64,000 bases of DNA from a virus (IMGVR_UViG_2778261223_000007:1-64000), one strand, 5' to 3'; shown: positions 43,723 to 54,908, counted from the stretch's first letter. Notes: generated by a model not told the origin, from the sequence alone. Program-made: numbers and translations.

Positions 43723-44217
43723 TTGTTGTTATTATTTCGCATATTTACTATCAATTGGTGTGTTAGAAAAATAGCGCGAAAGAGAAGGCGTCGCAGTGAA
43801 TATTCTGAAACATCCCCACATGCCGCAGCTCTTAGAGAACTGGAGAAAAACCCAGATCTAATCAAAAGGAACCATGAGCATTACGAGCAGGTTCGCGTCC
43901 TGGACTGGATGTATCGCAATATGCGTTATGTGTATGAGCATACTCACGCCACTCCAAACGGTGGCCTGCGAGGCATAAGGACGGCAATAAAAATGGTGGC
44001 AGAGGGCCAAAAGAAGGGATATCCCGATCTTTCTATAGACCTTGCTTGTGGGGGATACCACGGAATGCGCATTGAGATGAAACATGGGAGAAATCGCCTG
44101 ACTCCCGAACAACTCGTCTGGATGACTCGCCTCACAGAAGCCGGTTACTACTGCTTTGAGGCGCGCAGTGCCGCTGAAGCCATAAAAGCTATCACGGAGT
44201 ATGTTTGTCTTGATTAA
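43723..44217 (+). CDS. VRR-NUC domain nuclease candidate (start uncertain)
   Basis: C-terminal ~100 aa show the VRR-NUC pattern (..KKGYPDLSIDL...IEMKHGRNRLTPEQLVWMTRL..); true start probably downstream of the operator-like site at 43758 (GTG 43797 or a later ATG). Confidence 0.45.
   Translation: MLLLFRIFTINWCVRKIARKRRRRSEYSETSPHAAALRELEKNPDLIKRNHEHYEQVRVLDWMYRNMRYVYEHTHATPNGGLRGIRTAIKMVAEGQKKGYPDLSIDLACGGYHGMRIEMKHGRNRLTPEQLVWMTRLTEAGYYCFEARSAAEAIKAITEYVCLD
43758..43773 (-). promoter_or_regulatory. operator-like motif
   Basis: Reverse complement TATTTTTCTAACACAC, upstream of the VRR-NUC coding region. Confidence 0.4.
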
Positions 44218-44231
44218 ACGGAGAAATCGTT

Positions 44232-44432
44232 TTGCGTTTACATAACGTGGCAGAACTTATCCCTGCAGGAACTAATGCTATCGCTCGTCGTCGCTCATGG
44301 CAGCAGGCTCTATGTATTGAGATCTCGAAACGTATCAATGGAAGTTTTGAAGCTCGCAATATTGTTACTGGCGATAAGGTTCACATAACCCCGGAAAGTG
44401 CAAGCGCTGATGATTGGGAGTTTGTACATTGA
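44232..44432 (+). CDS. hypothetical protein (66 aa)
   Basis: ORF only. Confidence 0.3.
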   Translation: MRLHNVAELIPAGTNAIARRRSWQQALCIEISKRINGSFEARNIVTGDKVHITPESASADDWEFVH

Positions 44433-44728
44433 GCAAAAAATATTATGTGAGTCTGGCGTTCGCTGACGATGCGGGGAGGACGCGGAGTATCACGTTGAGC
44501 ACACCGGTTCAGGCTGTGACAGCGCCGTTAATCCGTGAAGCTCTCAGAGAGCTGGAATTGGGTGAAAACTCGGCACTGTTGTCGGTTAGTTGGTTAGGGA
44601 AAATGTCAGAGAAACAATACGTGGATGGAGTTACCCCAATAACAGTAATGAGGCTACTTTCATTGCTGCAATGGGCCATCGTACCTGTATTTATCGCGTA
44701 TCTTATTTATCAGGCTGCAACACAGTAA
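44414..44728 (+). CDS. hypothetical membrane protein (104 aa)
   Basis: C-terminal hydrophobic helix (LLSLLQWAIVPVFIAYLIY); followed by a terminator. Confidence 0.35.
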   Translation: MGVCTLSKKYYVSLAFADDAGRTRSITLSTPVQAVTAPLIREALRELELGENSALLSVSWLGKMSEKQYVDGVTPITVMRLLSLLQWAIVPVFIAYLIYQAATQ

Positions 44729-44734
44729 TTGCAT

Positions 44735-44761
44735 AAAAACCCGCCAATTAGCGGGTTTTTT
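44735..44761 (+). terminator. intrinsic terminator
   Basis: AAAAACCCGCCAATTAGCGGGTTTTTTG. Confidence 0.65.
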
Positions 44762-44801
44762 GTTTATTGCATCTTCCGATACCGTCATCAAACTAATAAA
44801 A

Positions 44802-44822
44802 TATGTTAGAAAACTAATTTAA
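44802..44822 (-). promoter_or_regulatory. operator-like motif
   Basis: Reverse complement TTAAATTAGTTTTCTAACATA immediately upstream of the 44842 gene. Confidence 0.45.
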
Positions 44823-44841
44823 CAAAGTGACGGGAACAGCA

Positions 44842-46050
44842 ATGAGTCAACACACTGATACTTCTAATCTGGAAATTATCTCGACAGCAATTGAAACGCT
44901 GCGCACACAAATCGCTCTTATACAGAAACGGAATCCTGGTGATGACCTGTCAAAGCGACTGCACGAGAGTGTCATTGCCACTACAGATAACCTGGTGGCG
45001 GAAATCAACAAGCTGCTTGATGATGGGGCAGTTGATTACAATAAGCTGGTGGATCAGTTTGAGGAATACCAACAAGCCGTTAATGATGGCTTGATCCGTT
45101 TTTCACAAGTCACAGGCGTATCAGCGACAGTTGAAAGCCTGGGTGATGCAGTTAATCAATTTGCCACGAATATGCGTAATGAGATCGGCAATCTGGAAGC
45201 GCGTCTTGAACAGGCAAATACACTGCGTAAATCTGCTGAAGCCGATTTGAACCGTTACAAAAAAGACTATCCGCCCACCCTGACAAAGCGGCTGGATGTT
45301 GCGGAGAAGGATAACCGCACGCTGAAAAGAGAGCGCCGGGAACTAAAAGAGCGTTTAACCAAGCTCAATCAGCAATGCATTGATTATCAAGGCGAAGGCG
45401 TCACACTGCGTAAAAAGTTGGCTACAGCGCAGAGCATTATCGAAACATTAAAGCGAGAGTGCTCACAGCTTGGTCACGATCTGAACCGTGCTTGTGGCAT
45501 GGGACAAAGACCAGAGACATTTCCACTTATGTATGACGGAAGGGATGCCATTGCCTACATCCATGAGTATCCGCACGGCCTGGTTGCGGAAACTGGGCAG
45601 CGTGGCGAAGCACTGCTGACGGCTAATTACCATCAACAAATCAGAACCAATCGCCTGTTAACGATGGATGTGATCCCATCGGTATGGGGAACGCCGCTTT
45701 ACTATCGCCTGCCGGGCTTCGAAAAGGACTGGAATACCGACATAGACGAATGTCTCGCAGATAAAATTATGGCGTACCTGGAGACGGATTTTCCGCGCTT
45801 ATATCGCCGGATTATGGACTCAAAGGATGCGCCAATCGATGAATTAAAAATGCGTCCGGAGACGCTGGAGGCAATCAAGCAGACGGAGTTTGATACTGTA
45901 TTCAGTGTGGCCTGCATTCCAAGCTGTTTCCATGAAAGCATTCCGTTCATGCAAGGAGATCGTCGTCAGGAAATCATTGACGCTTGCCGGGTATGGGCGA
46001 ACGAATGGGATAAGAAGAATGGGGGTGTAGAAGATCTTTACGGGAAGTAA
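44842..46050 (+). CDS. hypothetical coiled-coil protein, operator-flanked
   Basis: ~402 aa from ATG 44842 (track uses GTG 44827); N-terminal coiled-coil; operator-like motifs at both ends of the gene. Confidence 0.45.
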   Translation: MSQHTDTSNLEIISTAIETLRTQIALIQKRNPGDDLSKRLHESVIATTDNLVAEINKLLDDGAVDYNKLVDQFEEYQQAVNDGLIRFSQVTGVSATVESLGDAVNQFATNMRNEIGNLEARLEQANTLRKSAEADLNRYKKDYPPTLTKRLDVAEKDNRTLKRERRELKERLTKLNQQCIDYQGEGVTLRKKLATAQSIIETLKRECSQLGHDLNRACGMGQRPETFPLMYDGRDAIAYIHEYPHGLVAETGQRGEALLTANYHQQIRTNRLLTMDVIPSVWGTPLYYRLPGFEKDWNTDIDECLADKIMAYLETDFPRLYRRIMDSKDAPIDELKMRPETLEAIKQTEFDTVFSVACIPSCFHESIPFMQGDRRQEIIDACRVWANEWDKKNGGVEDLYGK

Positions 46051-46068
46051 TGTGTTAGAAATCTAAAA
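46050..46068 (-). promoter_or_regulatory. operator-like motif
   Basis: Reverse complement TTTTAGATTTCTAACACAT overlapping the stop codon of the upstream gene. Confidence 0.4.
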
Positions 46069-46800
46069 TCACAATTCGAATGTGTTGATTGTGAAGGTAA
46101 CTTAACATAGAATTTTCCTTGCTGGTGGGCGGTACCCACGTTTCGCTTGCTGGGCTTGATAGTCACTTATTGGTTATTGTTCGCCCACCAGCATTTAACA
46201 AATTAAAGCGTTAGAAAAGTATAGTAACGCAAGAGCACGCTTTGGCACTGTGCAGGCAAAAGTTCAGCAGGTTTAGTGCGGAAAGTGGTTTCAGAGAGAG
46301 CACTTTGCGGAGTAAACGACAATACATGTTGAGCCACGGAAGGTCTTTTTAAGGTGTTCATTGATGATGGTCCGGCAGAGAGTAACGGTACATGCTGCAT
46401 CTAATCATCAATGCACATCTTCAACATTAAGGAGGCATAGGGATTTTTGTGGCGGTTACCTTTTGCCCTGAGTCTCCTTAATGTTGCAGTAATGCACCTA
46501 TGCGGATGTGGCCTTGCATTGTGTCTTGAAAGAATGGGGTAAGGCCGGGGATATCCCCAGGGGGAGGCACTCCCGCTGCAACGAACAGCCACAGACGGCA
46601 GTCGAGTGATGGGAACGTGAAAAGACTTTAAACCTCGTTATGGCTGGCGTGGCAAACGCGACAACCGAGACAGAGCGGTGACGGGCGGAGAGAGTGCCGC
46701 ATCAAGAAAGAAGCCGACTTGTGATCCCTTTCAGCGGGCATTTGAAAGTGAATCCAACTCAGGCAGTCGGCTTCTTTCTTGTGTGAGATGTAGCGTATTT

Positions 46801-46824
46801 GCCCATCTTCGGGTGGGCTTTTTT
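46801..46824 (+). terminator. intrinsic terminator within the noncoding region
   Basis: GCCCATCTTCGGGTGGGC hairpin followed by TTTTTT; preceded by a 15-bp perfect-stem hairpin (46705-46779). Confidence 0.55.
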
Positions 46825-47284
46825 AGGGTTTTCGTCATGGTTAGCGACTTTGCGGCGGTTTAGAAACCGACCATTAAAGTAAATGCAAACGATGATCTGA
46901 TGATGGTAGCGGCCTAAGAAGCCAGACGCCACGGGGTATGAGTCGTCCCCCGTCAAAAAATCGACCGCAGAGTGTCCCCGTCTGTGTATTAGGGAACGGG
47001 GAGGCATAACAGGCAAGGGCGCTGGTGTGATTAACCAGATGAATGAGAAGGGTCAGGTCTTTCTGGTCAGCGCCCTTACCTGTTACGTCCCTCCCGCGTA
47101 ACAGCCATTGCTTAATGGCATCCTGGGGGAATTTCTTGTAACGGGTATATCCCGTCATGCTGAAGGCGCTAATCACGCTGGAAGCCAGGGTTGTGCATCC
47201 CCTGTTACCGAATTGCAGCCAGGGCGCGGTGCGCCGAAAAGCATACGGAGGTGGAAGCCCTCGCCGGAGACGTACCCGGCAAGT

Positions 47285-47360
47285 GATGGTGTAGCTCAGC
47301 GGTTAGAGCGGTTGACTGTTAATCAACGGGTCGATGGTTCAAATCCATCCACCATCGCCA
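47285..47360 (+). tRNA. tRNA-Asn (anticodon GTT)
   Basis: Cloverleaf read by hand: acceptor GATGGTG/CACCATC, D-stem GCTC/GAGC, anticodon loop CTGTTAA, T-loop TTCAAAT, discriminator G + CCA encoded. Confidence 0.85.
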
Positions 47361-47362
47361 AT

Positions 47363-47438
47363 GCCGGTTTAGCTCAGTTGGTAGAGCGCCTGCCTTGTAA
47401 GCAGGATGTCAGCGGTTCGAGTCCGTTAATCGGCACCA
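47363..47438 (+). tRNA. tRNA-Thr (anticodon TGT)
   Basis: Acceptor GCCGGTT, D-arm GCTCAGTTGGTAGAGC, anticodon loop CTTGTAA, T-loop TTCGAGT, CCA encoded; close to E. coli tRNA-Thr as recalled. Confidence 0.85.
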
Positions 47439-47903
47439 GCACAACAGGTAAGGGTATTTTGCGACGTCGGAGATCGCCGAGCTTGGCAGAGGGTTCGAAT
47501 CCCTACGAAGTACCCTTACCGTTGTGATGAAGTGCAGCTCTTTGAAGCAACCAGAAGATAAGCATCTGGCTTCACAACATAAACCGCAGGAACGACCAAT
47601 AAACGGTAGTCCGTACGGAGAACACCCCGTTGAGGAAGAGGCCTGGCCGGAACCGTAACCGGCACTACAACGTTGAGAACACTGGCGTAACGGGGTCATA
47701 TCCCAATCTACGAATAAATGTTGCGTTGCAGCGTGACAACCAGTGTTCTCAACGTTGTGGTGGATTCGCAGGCTGATGCGATAGCTTTCTTGGATGTTAG
47801 GGAAATGCGGCCGCAAATCTTCCCTTTCGCGAGCGGTGATCGTCCGTAGTCCTAATTGGCTGCACCGTATGCCGGAGATTCAGTACCGGCCACCACAACG
47901 GCC

Positions 47904-47990
47904 GGAGAGTAGGGCGCATGGTGCTCAAGCGGTCTTGAAAACCGTCCCATTGCGCAAGCGATGATGGTTCGATTCCATTACTCTCCGCCA
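47904..47990 (+). tRNA. class II tRNA-like element, anticodon TGA (Ser-like), non-canonical D-arm
   Basis: Acceptor GGAGAGT/ACTCTCC + G + CCA; anticodon stem-loop GCGGT-CTTGAAA-ACCGT like tRNA-Ser(UGA); T-loop TTCGATT; long variable arm; D-arm does not fold cleanly, so possibly a pseudo-tRNA. Confidence 0.4.
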
Positions 47991-48257
47991 GCGCAACGTT
48001 AAGAGTATTTGGCTAATTAAGCGAATGCCGGAAGCAGAACCGGATCACCAAATGCGTACAGGCGTCATCGCCGCCCAGCCAGCCAAGTGCTCTTACCATT
48101 GCGGTGAATGCGGCTAAGCGCACGCGGAACAGTTAAAACAATCCTCCTTAGTGGTTAAGTCAAAAATCCCGGCGTTAATTGTTAACTGGTTAACGTCACC
48201 TGGAGGCACCAGGCACCGCAACCTAATAAATACGTCATGTTTATTGAGGGATAACCA

Positions 48258-48692
48258 ATGTTCGGTAAATTTTTCGGTAAGAAAGTCGCTTCAGCAAAAG
48301 TAGAGCTGAAAAGGGTTGAGAATCGCGATCTGATGGAGGCCATTATCGGTGGCTGTTTGTTGGTGTCTGCCGCAGATGGTGAAATCGAAAAGGAAGAAAC
48401 AGCGAAACTTGATCAGCTTGTCCGCTCTAATCCTCGCTTAAGTCATTTTGGCAACGAAATTACCGCAACAATCACCCGTTTTACTGAGCAACTGGAAGCT
48501 GGTTTCCGTGTTGGTCGCATGAATATCCTTCGCGAAATTGAAGATATCAAAAATGATCCAAAAGAAGCGGAAGAAGTATTCGTTAACATGCTGACGATTG
48601 CAGAAGCGGACGGTGAAATCGAGCCAGCAGAACACAAAGTACTGGAAGAAGTAGGCCGTCGTTTGGGCCTTCGTGTGGAAGATTATCTGTAA
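48258..48692 (+). CDS. TerB-like protein (tciA-like)
   Basis: 144 aa with two ..AADGEIE..E.. / ..EADGEIE..E.. TerB-type repeats; sits between tRNA genes as the tci genes do in P1 (recalled). Confidence 0.55.
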   Translation: MFGKFFGKKVASAKVELKRVENRDLMEAIIGGCLLVSAADGEIEKEETAKLDQLVRSNPRLSHFGNEITATITRFTEQLEAGFRVGRMNILREIEDIKNDPKEAEEVFVNMLTIAEADGEIEPAEHKVLEEVGRRLGLRVEDYL

Positions 48693-48856
48693 TGATTGGC
48701 AAGGCGCGTATTGCGTGCGCCATTGGTTTTCTCGTTTTGTCCGTGCTGGTGGATTTCACCAGCAAAGTGATGTCGGTGTTGGCTGATGGGGCACTGGTTT
48801 CAGTAGCTGTGGTATTGCTATTGCCGATTATTAAAGCTGCGTTCAGGAACTCATGA
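48692..48856 (+). CDS. small membrane protein (tciB-like position)
   Basis: 54-aa hydrophobic ORF (MIGKARIACAIGFLVLSVLVDF..) starting at a TAATG overlap with the TerB-like gene; not in the supplied track (below size cutoff). Confidence 0.4.
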   Translation: MIGKARIACAIGFLVLSVLVDFTSKVMSVLADGALVSVAVVLLLPIIKAAFRNS

Positions 48857-48966
48857 TGGATTTTTGGACGTATATTGATAAGAACCCTGGATGGTCTTTG
48901 CTATTTCTGCTTGTGATCGTATACGGAGTAGAACAAGTAGCGAAGAATCTCAGGCGTCGAAAATAA
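48853..48966 (+). CDS. small membrane protein (tciC-like position)
   Basis: 37-aa ORF MMDFWTYIDKNPGWSLLFLLVIVYGVEQVAKNLRRRK, overlapping the previous stop; hand-translated. Confidence 0.35.
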   Translation: MMDFWTYIDKNPGWSLLFLLVIVYGVEQVAKNLRRRK

Positions 48967-48975
48967 AAACTAATT

Positions 48976-49051
48976 GGCCCCTTAGCTCAGTGGTTAGAGC
49001 TGGCGACTCATAATCGCACGGTCACCGGTTCAAGTCCGGTAGGGGCCACCA
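48976..49051 (+). tRNA. tRNA-Ile2 (anticodon CAT, ileX-like)
   Basis: GGCCCCTTAGCTCAGTGGTTAGAGC...CTCATAA...GGTTCAAGTCC...AGGGGCCACCA; near-identical in outline to E. coli ileX as recalled; CAT anticodon could also read Met. Confidence 0.8.
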
Positions 49052-49505
49052 TATTTGGTTGTAACACGGCGTCTGGCACATGCGTCGTTAGCGGTCTGGT
49101 GACGTTAAAGGGGTTACCTTTTCCCCTAGCTCAGGCAACAAACCAGGTAGCCGGAATGTGCAAGCCCCGTTCATATCGTCGGACCGAGGATTCACCATCC
49201 TGGCGATTCGGTGTGACAGCCGGAAGAGCACGGCGCACAACAGGAAAAGGCGTTTAATTAGCGTGAGCGCCGTTTCCGTTGTGGTAATTGCGGCTATGCG
49301 CTCGTGACGAAGCCATTTTCATTCACTACGTTCTGATAAGTGACGTCGCCAGGAGTGGCTAACCTGGCAGGTGGAGGCACCACCGCCACAACTCCTTTCA
49401 ATTCATCATATAGCCGCTCAGGCTGTACCCCTTAATTAATACGAAGTTACGACATCACTACCGGCACTTCCGGGGGATAGTCGCGCGTGTAAAAAAGGAG
49501 ACGTT

Positions 49506-50081
49506 ATGTTAATGGCGAACGATAACGCATATGCAGAAGAAGATCTCATTTTGAGTGACTTCATAGGGAAGCGTGAACGCTGGACCCAAAAGCGAGAGGA
49601 ACTTTACGCCTCATTAGTTCGCAAAGGCGTCAATATCGAAACCGCACAGAGCGGCGATATGACAGTGGTAAGCGTTGGATTGCACGGTGTAAGCGTGTCA
49701 GCAATCAATCATGAGCCATACGTTGCGTTATCCGAGTCAATGGTAAGGTTAGTTAAGTTCCTGAAGTACACAGAAGCGAATAATGTAATCATTGGCAAAA
49801 AGAATATCCCTTTTTCCTCGGCTTTTTACTGGATGATGAAAGGGCTTGATGCCCGGCGGACATCATGGCCTAAAGGGAGCTATATATCGATGTTCCGTGG
49901 CAGCATTGGCAGCAAAGAAAAGCTCTTCGAATTCTTGCCGGAAGAGGCATTCGATATTGTGGAAGGGTGCGATGTGATGGTGATGCCTCGCCTGGTAATG
50001 ATGAATGGTGATTTACAGGCGCAGACAGACTGGTTTGCAACTGGTGTGGATATTATCGCGACTGACTGGGAGGCTTTCTGA
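49506..50081 (+). CDS. hypothetical protein with C-terminal DUF2829-like region
   Basis: 191 aa; ..PFSSAFYWMMKGLDARRTSWPKGSYISMF.. resembles the DUF2829 signature; weaker than ORF 57728. Confidence 0.35.
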   Translation: MLMANDNAYAEEDLILSDFIGKRERWTQKREELYASLVRKGVNIETAQSGDMTVVSVGLHGVSVSAINHEPYVALSESMVRLVKFLKYTEANNVIIGKKNIPFSSAFYWMMKGLDARRTSWPKGSYISMFRGSIGSKEKLFEFLPEEAFDIVEGCDVMVMPRLVMMNGDLQAQTDWFATGVDIIATDWEAF

Positions 50082-53870: not shown

Positions 53871-54908
53871 TTACCAGAGCTTCGCGGCGTACTGCGTTTG
53901 GGGGAATGTGTATCCGTAACGTTCTTCGATTGCTTTGCCGTATTTTTTACGAGCTTCATTCAGTTTAATGCCGGTCAGGTCGTCTCCAGAGGCCATCATT
54001 ACGTCTAACAATTCCAGATCCATTTTATCCAGCCTTGCCATTGCTTCACGTGATGTACGTATCTTACGCTCAATGATATGGCGAATAGCCGGATCGGCAT
54101 CCTCCAGCATCTTAGCGGATTTCTGCTTAAGGCTTTCATTGCGAATATCGATGTTCCTTAAGATGTACGACTTCGCAACGTAGCTTGGCTGGTGTTTTTC
54201 CAGGTCACGAACACGATATAAGTTAAAATCGCCGAGAAGGCTGCAAGGTACCGATTCGACGCCAGAATAAATTGTAATGCTCCGGCGTTCACCAACATTA
54301 TTGACAACGGGGATCGTTGTCTTCGGTTGTCTTGCGAAAACCAATGCGCCATGTGCGCCAACTCTAAAGCGAGAAAGGGCATTGCTGCCTTCGATGTTTG
54401 TTGTCAGCACAACATCTGTATATGCCTCTTTACGCGCCCGGTAGATCTCGCCTTCAGGCTCAGCTTCAAAGAAGCGCTGTTCTTCTTCAAGAGCACCTAC
54501 GATTTGAGAAAAAACCCTATTTTTCAGGCTTTTCTTTATGATTTTGTCGTATTTTTTTAGCAATTGTTCACGTGTAAATGTACGTGTTGTTGTAGCGCTT
54601 TGCACAACGACATGCGTGCTTTGATTGGTGTCCTCAATGATGAATGGGATCGGAGAATATACAGACTCAACAATGTTCGACGCTTTGCCGTCGGCATCGC
54701 GGCACATGTCAACGAAGGCTTTCCATTCAGCAAGACATTTTTCAGCTTCTTCTAATATGTTTTGGTCATGCGTTAATGCAACATGGCGGAATTCCTCGCC
54801 AGCATAACTGGTATCATGGAAAACAGAGTTTGCGACCACCAGCTCTTTCCACCGTTCAGCGGTTTGCAGGAACCGTTTGTACTCTTTCTCGATCGACTTC
54901 TTACTCAT
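53871..54908 (-). CDS. hypothetical protein at the c1-like position (candidate regulator)
   Basis: 345-aa ORF between terminase genes and the lox-like site, with an operator-like motif 15 bp upstream of its start; function not supported by any motif. Confidence 0.35.
   Translation of the reverse strand: MSKKSIEKEYKRFLQTAERWKELVVANSVFHDTSYAGEEFRHVALTHDQNILEEAEKCLAEWKAFVDMCRDADGKASNIVESVYSPIPFIIEDTNQSTHVVVQSATTTRTFTREQLLKKYDKIIKKSLKNRVFSQIVGALEEEQRFFEAEPEGEIYRARKEAYTDVVLTTNIEGSNALSRFRVGAHGALVFARQPKTTIPVVNNVGERRSITIYSGVESVPCSLLGDFNLYRVRDLEKHQPSYVAKSYILRNIDIRNESLKQKSAKMLEDADPAIRHIIERKIRTSREAMARLDKMDLELLDVMMASGDDLTGIKLNEARKKYGKAIEERYGYTFPQTQYAAKLW

Follow-up and report, generated by a model that had tools for sequence, protein, structure and literature searches.

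The interval 46050-47284 of a virus-derived DNA of 64,000 nucleotides (IMGVR_UViG_2778261223_000007:1-64000; this whole stretch is called the window, and coordinates count from its first letter) is on balance best read as the untranslated front of an early, repressor-controlled tRNA operon, consisting of a folded leader RNA, an intrinsic terminator and an RNA derived from transfer-messenger RNA (tmRNA) that would be active in trans-translation. The central element is a tmRNA-like core at 46828-47001, in which a tag frame is conserved at the codon level and the hairpin and pseudoknot behind it are kept as well. The first-pass annotation, made from the sequence without database searches, had taken the interval for one or more regulated noncoding RNAs rather than spacer DNA. 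This was right in kind, as indicated by an operator-like site, a predicted promoter, covarying hairpins and a conserved terminator, and a regulated RNA is what we infer as well. All six features that it named are present within a few bases of where it had placed them; the two ancestries of the interval, the Chi pair in one of its repeats and the tmRNA-like module had gone unnoticed.

The interval lies between a pmgS-like gene (44827-46050) and a tRNA-Asn gene (5' end at 47285), which is followed in order by tRNA-Thr, tRNA-Ser, a tciA-like gene and a tRNA with anticodon CAT. Sequence comparison of 45900-47500 gave 99.3% identity to Escherichia phage D6, a P1-related plasmid prophage, and the window is assigned to the D6-like phage-plasmids of P1/D6 type. 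The absence of a credible open reading frame (ORF) was confirmed: the longest ones are of 100 and 85 amino acids, both on the minus strand, and none of the nine candidates matched a Pfam or NCBIfam family. The D6 annotation carries no feature at all from pmgS to tRNA-Asn, and 46220-46800, a stretch present in 99 E. coli genomes, was left unannotated by PGAP in the sampled RefSeq rows.

In P1, the corresponding position is the start of the ban operon, with the promoters P1ban and P2ban and the C1 operator Op72, followed by an annotated "dicF-like region", about 460 unannotated nt, and tRNA-Asn and tRNA-Thr. Since P1 has its promoters, Op72, the same terminator, the shared block and the tRNAs at this place, the interval is regarded as the counterpart of the ban operon start. 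Both have in common the gene order, the terminator hairpin, a block of about 980 nt (95% identity) including both tRNAs, and an operator at the promoter. The P1 leader, however, is about 160 nt long and contains the dicF-like module, whereas the leader of the window is about 700 nt long, of unrelated sequence and associated with another operator motif.

The interval is composed of two units of unlike ancestry which meet at the terminator. Similarity to P1 starts exactly there, at 46798; over 46798-47778 the identity to P1 amounts to 94.9%, and the flanks of this shared block are at most 78% identical or cannot be aligned. Part A (46050-46797), with the operator, the promoter and the structured leader, is restricted to D6-like elements: it was found in 121 plasmids (Escherichia, Salmonella, Shigella and one Pantoea) and in 99 of 5,426 complete E. 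coli genomes, plasmid-borne every time and never chromosomal. BLAST against all fetched loci detected it in no other locus than these elements, and a scan of the genome collection with the AAGGAGG hairpin for more distant relatives of part A gave three matches, all unrelated. Part B (46825-47284) is about 95% identical to P1 and occurs in 618 plasmids and in 670 of the 5,426 E. coli genomes.

The tmRNA-like core and its tag frame

The core was located in part B by a sub-threshold Rfam match and by an 18-mer around the resume codon. Its parts are the following.

46828-47001, plus strand: tmRNA-like core of about 175 nt without recognisable tRNA-like domain, comprising GGTTTTCGTC, GCGACTTTGCGG, TTTAGAAACCGACCA, the resume context AAAGTAAAT, the tag ORF, the stop-codon hairpin, hairpin H5 and the pseudoknot
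46885-46917, plus strand: tag frame GCA AAC GAT GAT CTG ATG ATG GTA GCG GCC TAA (ANDDLMMVAA-stop), without start codon
46931-46953, plus strand: hairpin H5, stem ACGGGG/CCCCGT, just 3' of the tag
46967-47001, plus strand: H-type pseudoknot, with stem S1 formed by 46967-46971/46981-46985 and stem S2 by 46976-46980/46997-47001

A covariance-model scan, which had been suggested as a check on the first-pass annotation, was performed with all 4227 Rfam models over 44000-50000 at E <= 1. Only tRNAs passed their thresholds, and with nothing else in this full scan the large and phage RNAs GOLLD, ROOL and C4, riboswitches and ribozymes were rejected as candidates. Likewise, the DicF-like small RNA (sRNA) of the P1 annotation gave no RF00039 hit at E <= 1 in the window, in P1 or in loci L003 and L004. 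The P1 'dicF-like' segment is itself mostly deleted in the window, where only its terminator is left; the module is present in L003, L004 and L005. Below threshold, the permuted tmRNA model RF04321 matched 46744-46917 with 24.2 bits (gathering score, 47) and aligned the tag region, which was also aligned by RF01850 (11.8 bits). Matching sub-threshold hits to tmRNA models were found at the homologous spot in P1 and two plasmids.

The resume context, AGTAAAT followed by GCAAACGATGA (46878-46895), is identical over 18 nt to the resume consensus that ARAGORN prints for complete, genuine permuted tmRNAs, and the kinship to these two-piece molecules is for that reason considered real. The resume codon GCA with its conserved upstream context also aligns to the consensus of both Rfam models. 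A 19-mer around it matched at least 120 loci among viral contigs, and of 53 retrieved loci with a tag other than ANDDLMMVAA, 25 were called as full permuted tmRNAs by ARAGORN. The stop codon of the tag is situated in a small hairpin loop, and the hairpin after the tag resembles the end of the beta-proteobacterial Rfam model. At the other end, GGTTTTCGTC of the core is comparable to GGTTTCGAC of tmRNA 5' domains.

The conserved core begins with (GATAG)TTTTCG, ends with the pseudoknot and is represented by 98 distinct sequences from many phage types. Its stems were checked lineage by lineage, the MAFFT alignment A2 being out of register for structure-aware counting. H5 is formed in other lineages by CACGGGA/TCCCTG, GTGAGG/CCTCAT or CGAGG/CCTCG and is deleted in one. 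Both stems of the pseudoknot consist of standard pairs in all seven lineages tested in spite of differing sequences, S1 being GCAGA/TCTGT, GCAGT/ACTGT, GCAC/GTGT or GCAT/ATGT and S2 CCCCG/CGGGG, GCCC/GGGC, ATCC/GGAT, GCCCTGA/TCAGGGC or TCCCG/CGGGA. The flanking helix and pseudoknot that are characteristic of tmRNAs are represented 3' of the tag by these two elements.

The tag of the window, ANDDLMMVAA, differs from that of E. coli tmRNA (ANDENYALAA). Variation was surveyed with a scan anchored upstream of the tag, which left the tag itself unconstrained. Among 152 loci, 20 variants were found, including ANDDLMMVAA, ANDDVVLMAA, ANEEMYLAVA, ANDDLMLMAA, ANDEQFLAVA and ANDNTFLAVA; 19 of the 20 consist of exactly 10 codons and a stop, and nearly all end in AA or VA. 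Synonymous variation affects the terminal Ala (GCC, GCG, GCT, GCA), Leu, Glu and Asn, and the stop is either TAA or TAG. At the sequence level, this pattern is the signature of a translated frame, and the frame has the marks of a tmRNA tag, being short, hydrophobic with an Ala-Ala-stop end, and selected as protein. Because the tag frame is under such selection, the RNA would act in trans-translation, either as tag template or as competitor.

The closest known system is the permuted two-piece tmRNA described, for example, in methylophage Melnitz (PMC9004378). The core shares with it the resume context, a 10-codon tag starting with AND and ending with Ala-Ala-stop, the stop codon in a hairpin loop, a hairpin 3' of the tag like that of the beta-type Rfam model, a GGTTT(T)CG motif 5' of the message domain, and a site just 3' of an early promoter and beside phage tRNA genes. 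It differs in that no G3-U70 acceptor stem, encoded CCA or canonical T-arm was found, in scoring below the Rfam gathering score, in the lack of a default ARAGORN call, and in a predicted transcript start at the core in some phages. The element is hence not a canonical tmRNA, yet these shared parts clearly mark it as a tmRNA derivative. A direct origin from E. coli ssrA was rejected, the only matches being the resume region and one 11-mer. This 11-mer, GTGGAAGCCCT (47251-47261), is identical to ssrA 202-212 (E = 0.035), and a 12/13 match to the same region is present in a T-arm-like hairpin of locus L121 (~1247-1259); it may be a further remnant of tmRNA ancestry. Two environmental viral contigs, L073 and L128, combine a canonical tmRNA 5' domain (GGGGGTGTCCTGGTTTCGACGGGG) with the tag ANDEVFALAA; no acceptor piece lies upstream, and ARAGORN made no call. 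They may be intermediates between full two-piece tmRNAs and the forms without tRNA-like domain.

The 670 E. coli genomes retrieved with the 460-nt part B query represent about 12% of the collection; 545 of them match over most of the length, and the weaker partial matches cover the core only. With a related core query, matches were obtained in 478 of 50,697 deposited phage genomes (~1%). Carriers include Ackermannviridae, N4-like phages, several siphophages of enterobacteria and SSU5-like Klebsiella phage-plasmids. The usual site is a gene-free gap adjoining tRNA genes. In lambdoid prophages, the core is situated between the antiterminator and holin genes, just 3' of a terminator-like hairpin, and the layout of promoter, leader, terminator and module in a lambdoid late-operon leader is the same as in the window. 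In lambdoid phages a terminator separates the Q gene from the lysis genes, and the tRNA slot of Stx phages is located there. For D6 no Q-type antiterminator is known, though no search aimed at one was made. On the K. pneumoniae IncY plasmid pSCKLB684-mcr (L031, 1291-2460), which is also devoid of H5, a TnpB gene stands directly 5' of the core and replaces its 5' half; TnpB belongs to a family of RNA-guided endonucleases.

In the sampled records the core is unannotated or covered by tiny "hypothetical protein" calls, and the P1 annotation shows nothing over it, with only the "dicF-like region" 5' of it. A 2014 survey of RefSeq viruses and plasmids reported ssrA in mycobacteriophages only, and the 2025 tmRNA database lists "no CDS" forms (tRNA domain only) without a message-only category, its curation having discarded candidates if their tRNA portion contained deletions or their gene ends were missing (PMC4131195, PMC11915505). 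Such surveys would miss the element, since pipelines based on ARAGORN and Rfam models drop sequences without a tRNA-like domain. The supplement of the 2025 paper contained nothing on enterobacterial phages, and seven phage tag strings gave no match in the literature searched, which did not cover the P1 and D6 genome papers. On the evidence available, a tmRNA derivative with the message domain only is apparently unrecorded, although a prior mention is possible.

Control region, leader RNA and terminator

Upstream of the core, part A and the terminator contain the following features.

46049-46069, plus strand: operator-like site O1 (AATGTGTTAGAAATCTAAAAT), overlapping the stop codon of the pmgS-like gene; core at 46053-46067
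46085-46113, plus strand: sigma-70-like promoter TTGATT-17 nt-TAGAAT (consensus scan), predicted start near 46120
46120-46193, unstranded: 12-nt perfect inverted repeat whose arms are opposed Chi octamers, 46121-46128 (plus) and 46185-46192 (minus)
46205-46224, plus strand: weaker operator-like site O2 (AAAGCGTTAGAAAAGTATAG), one mismatch to GTGTTAGAAA, motif copy at 46208, about 155 bp 3' of O1
46277-46314, plus strand: leader hairpin, helix 1 of alignment A3; 17 pairs, 93% of cells paired
46353-46419, plus strand: leader hairpin GGTGTTCATTGATGATGG...CATCATCAATGCACATC; 13 + 4 pairs, 96% and 91% paired
46420-46488, plus strand: hairpin burying AAGGAGG; 22 pairs, 100% paired in 8 distinct sequences
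46447-46542, plus strand: candidate hydrophobic ORF of 31 codons with TTG start (MWRLPFALSLLNVAVMHLCGCGLALCLERMG), 11 nt after AAGGAGG
46685-46781, plus strand: small GC hairpin (46685-46700), then a 17-bp perfect hairpin (inverted-repeat search)
46801-46824, plus strand: intrinsic terminator GCCCATC-TTCG-GGTGGGC-TTTTTT; 7-bp stem with 5 G-C pairs, TTCG loop
696, 33859, 44804, 46053, 50489 (minus), 54922 (minus) and 56332 (minus): copies of TRTTAGAAAWNYWAW (motif scan)

The operator-like site noted at the 5' edge of the interval was found at 46053-46067 as one of these seven copies of TRTTAGAAAWNYWAW, against 0.05 expected in the window. The placed sites are situated directly 5' of ORFs, namely the pmgS-like gene, an lpa-like gene (50582) and ORFs at 54908 (minus) and 56393 (plus). 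Because an lpa-like gene is among them, and lpa of P1 is controlled by C1, the motif is probably the operator of a D6-type C1 repressor, although it is unlike the P1 consensus seen at Op72. P1-type C1 operators are asymmetric sites of about 17 bp that recur at early promoters across the genome, and the seven copies fit this pattern. The seven sites also provide a candidate map of promoters controlled by the D6 repressor. O1 shows no variation in any relative, and at the position of O2 either GTGTTAGAAA or ATGTTAGAAA is kept in all lineages despite varying flanks. Between O1 and O2, both hexamers of the predicted promoter are kept in every lineage (TAAAAT in one) while the spacer drifts, which is typical of a real promoter; its position is equivalent to that of P1ban/P2ban with Op72 in P1.

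The GCTGGTGGGCG inverted repeat was present as noted, with perfect 12-nt arms at 46120-46131 and 46182-46193, but its reading as an RNA hairpin is not favoured. The arms do not covary: they are invariant across lineages in which the 50 nt between them diverge strongly, which argues for a sequence-specific constraint instead of, or besides, RNA pairing. Each arm contains a Chi octamer (GCTGGTGG), the recognition sequence of RecBCD, and an explanation at the DNA level accounts for the repeat no less well than an RNA hairpin. The octamer occurs 31 times in the window (1.6 expected), mostly on the plus strand, and forms two closely spaced inverted pairs, 37883 (minus)/37917 (plus) and 46121 (plus)/46185 (minus).

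For the leader itself, 46118-46826 of the plus strand folds with -266 kcal/mol (z = -6.9, 20 shuffles). It was compared across 24 distinct relatives, and a formal covariation test was performed on 8 distinct sequences of 46272-46500. These yield a consensus structure of 65 pairs, in which 95.8% of cells are paired. Changes on both sides affect five pairs, against 2.0 +/- 1.1 in shuffled alignments (6 of 500 shuffles reach 5) and none in any slid control. Four of the compensatory double changes fall in the hairpin that occludes AAGGAGG (46429-46435), proposed by the first-pass annotation and found with arms at 46412-46442 and 46466-46496 and with its core helix paired in 8 of 8 distinct relatives. 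The hairpin at 46277-46314 contains one double-changed pair (U-A / G-C) and several G-C to G-U changes. At 46353-46419 only one-sided changes were observed (G-U to A-U or G-C), consistent with the plus strand; the 3' arm of this hairpin overlaps the base of the AAGGAGG hairpin, with which it may compete for pairing.

The perfect stem that had been described as 15 bp long measures 17 bp (46703-46719/46765-46781). Two of its pairs are changed from A-U to U-A and from G-C to A-U in one lineage, and hand reading of alignment A1 added three more swapped pairs in plasmids of Shigella dysenteriae and E. fergusonii, where a G-U pair favours the plus strand. It is possibly a processing stem of RNase III type. 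A comparison of relatives for compensatory changes had been recommended with the original prediction; three of the four hairpins it named keep their pairing through such changes, and for these three the reading as structured RNA is supported. A plus-strand RNA is favoured since many of the one-sided changes in the leader run between G-U and A-U or G-C. The terminator (GCCCATC-TTCG-GGTGGGC and T6) was exactly as predicted, a GC-rich stem-loop followed by a run of T, and it is kept in P1, where it ends the 'dicF-like region', and in all relatives.

Taken as an operon front, the interval could work as follows. A D6-type C1 repressor on O1, and probably on O2 too, which flank the sigma-70 promoter, would keep the unit silent in the lysogen. 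Upon derepression, transcription from about 46120 would produce the lineage-specific leader of some 700 nt with its stable hairpins, and the majority of transcripts would probably stop at 46801-46824, the leader serving both as an RNA product and as an attenuator. The read-through RNA would contain the tmRNA-derived module, processing-type hairpins and the tRNAs. The cut of RNase P at tRNA-Asn (47285) would set the 3' end of the upstream RNA and RNase III might cut the long stems, so that a stable tmRNA-like RNA and the tRNAs would be released. Retaining the resume context, the 10-codon tag frame, the stop in its loop, the hairpin and the pseudoknot and lacking the alanine-accepting tRNA-like domain, the module would most likely engage in host trans-translation during phage growth by supplying, or competing for, the tag-template step.

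Neighbouring elements of the P1-shared block

The remainder of the block 3' of the core, as far as the tRNA genes and beyond, contains these elements.

47003-47089, plus strand: long 'X'-type hairpin (ACAGGCAAGGGC...GCCCTTACCTGT), directly 3' of the pseudoknot
47090-47284, plus strand: remainder of the shared block, with a variable patch, a long-range strand and small GC hairpins (47246-47280)
47003-47089, 47441-47527, 47668-47757 and ~48000-48112: X hairpins of the window; others in L149, L153, L154, L163, L165 and further loci

The X hairpin has a conserved stem (ACAACAGGTAAGRGCATT ... AGTGCTCTTWCCGTTGTGG) with a highly variable interior and flanks both the core and tRNA genes. A stem of this type follows the pseudoknot in many unrelated phages as well, and its appearance is that of a signal for RNA processing or of a cassette boundary. 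Further on, the strand 47169-47186 is predicted to pair with 46827-46844; there is almost no variation at these positions, and the helix is a prediction only. A hypervariable hairpin patch of about 35 nt (~47100-47140) is located inside this near-invariant block, with variants that are reshuffled among lineages independently of their surroundings, which suggests recombination or diversifying selection.

At 47441-47527, a tRNA-like element called by no tool has a long closing stem, an arm GCGA...TCGC and a perfect T-arm (AGGGTTCGAATCCCT), which is followed by 7 nt, one base and CC; beside the core, it was found only in P1/D6-type elements. An ORF of 135 codons at 47409-47816 (minus strand) corresponds to the lipoprotein gene 'plp' of P1. 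It overlaps tRNA-Thr and matches no family, and with this plp-like ORF lying inside the 95%-conserved structured block, the P1 plp annotation, and perhaps upl too, may be spurious. The slot of tRNA-Asn (47285-47360) is occupied by tRNA-Arg (TCT) in L005 (3523-3599) and L006 (2749-2825) with identical flanks, a replacement with the appearance of a cassette-like exchange of tRNA genes. Just 5' of the tciA-like gene, 48100-48220 gave a sub-threshold Rfam match to the sRNA STnc100 (39.6 bits, gathering score 47), which recurs at the homologous place in P1 and L003.

Competing explanations and meaning of the finding

Several observations weigh against an operon front with an active tmRNA derivative. 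Concerning its expression, O1 lies 5' of the -35 hexamer and not over the promoter, the canonical terminator stands between the only predicted promoter and the tmRNA-like module, and the minus strand of the leader folds well too (z = -5.4), as expected for hairpins. The 5' half of the core is near-invariant, and covariation cannot test its fold or an upstream pseudoknot. Other adverse results concern the tRNA-like domain, for which the G3-U70 acceptor stem, T-arm and 3' CCA were sought and not found in the element. ARAGORN at default settings predicted 4 tRNAs and no tmRNA in the window, and in the RF04321 match the helices of the tRNA domain were unmatched. Relaxed ARAGORN settings (90-60% thresholds) made calls only amid many false positives. 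In the compact lineage L121 the only call that they made is a permuted arrangement, with a T-arm-like hairpin, a closed acceptor-like stem and then the core, and all candidate acceptor stems lack G3-U70 and an encoded CCA. Of 44 distinct loci, none contained a strand complementary to GATAGTT and followed by N-CC. A TTGACA-17-TAGATT promoter is located 7-8 nt 5' of the core in several phages, and since the RNA would have to begin at the core there, no room is left for the 5' strand of an acceptor stem. We know of no way for a tag frame to enter the ribosome without charging.

Other sequences were considered as the acceptor piece and rejected: in the P1 'dicF-like' module, no acceptor pairing that covaries was seen; read as a closed acceptor stem, the terminator has G-U at 2:71, with C-G in some lineages; and the T-arm element 47441-47527 does not co-occur with the core outside the P1/D6 type. 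Phage IME11 (L148, ~1985-2015) contains a T-arm TCTGG-TTCGAGT-CCAGA followed by CGCCGGA-A-CCA about 480 nt 3' of the core, where ARAGORN called no tRNA.

These results bear directly on how the core could work. A two-piece tmRNA, of which the core is one half and a separate RNA such as the T-arm element (GGGTTCGAATCCC) the acceptor, with both RNAs pairing, being charged and tagging proteins in the usual manner, would account for the translation that codon-level conservation of the tag implies; the nearest relatives are the permuted two-piece tmRNAs of environmental phages, L121 offers such an arrangement, and 47441-47527 has a perfect T-loop with the spacing to CC described above. This is nevertheless improbable in view of the acceptor stems without G3-U70 or CCA and the 0/44 result, and the T-arm element is absent from 18 of 18 loci with ANDDVVLMAA and 11 of 11 with ANEEMYLAVA that have at least 1.5 kb on both sides. 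The missing tRNA-like domain would also fit an RNA that is an uncharged tmRNA mimic, one that does no tagging and instead titrates or redirects a host factor (e.g. S1, RNase R or SmpB), thereby modulating ribosome rescue or RNA decay during phage growth. Recognition by a factor also fits the near-invariance of the 5' half across phage families better than pairing alone, and the converse has a precedent in a phage tmRNA cut down to its tRNA-like domain and in a similar molecule that was shown to inhibit tmRNA (PMC4131195, PMC11915505). A pure decoy, on the other hand, has no need of an intact 10-codon frame ending in Ala-Ala-stop, and the synonymous pattern argues that the frame is read; we consider the mimic unlikely as well. 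Less probable still is that the interval holds regulatory DNA and decaying relics, a tmRNA pseudogene and tRNA fragments carried along with tRNA genes as mere spacer, whose conservation reflects recent spread and recombination. The P1-D6 identity in the shared block is high enough for a recent exchange to be plausible, the variable patch is shuffled among lineages, and the tRNA-like domain is lacking; against this, tag frame, hairpin and pseudoknot are kept in unrelated phage families where about half of the tag nucleotides differ, and the leader hairpins show compensatory changes.

For part A, the leader might instead be the mRNA of a small toxic membrane peptide, similar to type I toxins, in which the 31-codon ORF is silenced by the 22-bp hairpin; AAGGAGG and the start codon would be locked and translation would occur only following processing or refolding. 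The strong Shine-Dalgarno sequence at 11 nt from the TTG start, a predicted product consisting of a single hydrophobic helix, a frame and hydrophobic character maintained through three divergent versions of the 5' codons, and the synonymous nature of four of the five substitutions in the conserved part (our own count) speak for it, and the burial of the Shine-Dalgarno sequence is backed by covariation. The synonymous changes fall on paired positions of the hairpin, however, and the stop is removed by a +1 insertion in several distinct sequences (adding about 32 residues) while another has a frameshift within the ORF. The peptide belongs to no Pfam or NCBIfam family and has one relative among 5.8 billion proteins, and no antisense promoter was found by consensus scan of the minus strand. 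We give a toxin mRNA little credence.

A bolder and rather doubtful extension of the preferred reading is that the cores form a widespread phage family of "half tmRNAs" of about 175 nt, which have shed the tRNA-like domain, keep the message domain only and reprogram host ribosome rescue with a tag repertoire of their own. Such an RNA might work with the charged tmRNA-SmpB borrowed from the host, with an acceptor RNA that has escaped recognition, or by competition during the template swap, and the degradation tag of stalled proteins, if they receive one at all, would then be altered by infection. Mycobacteriophage DS6A and the "no CDS" tmRNA forms are likewise truncated, phage-borne tmRNAs in which one functional half is kept (PMC4131195, PMC11915505). 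DS6A, in contrast to the element of the window, retains the tRNA-like domain and no tag; here it is the opposite half, the tag domain, that has been kept.

P1 is among the most studied phages, and phage-plasmids of P1/D6 type are common carriers of resistance genes. For the annotation of this group, a D6-type operator motif, an early promoter and a conserved attenuator are gained as candidates. As a decoy, the element would mirror the known phage inhibitor that consists of the tRNA domain only. If it is true that the tag frame is read, phages manipulate trans-translation, the choice of a resume template by the ribosome would become open to direct study, and the accepted rule that a tag template is joined to, or paired with, a charged tRNA-like domain would be broken.

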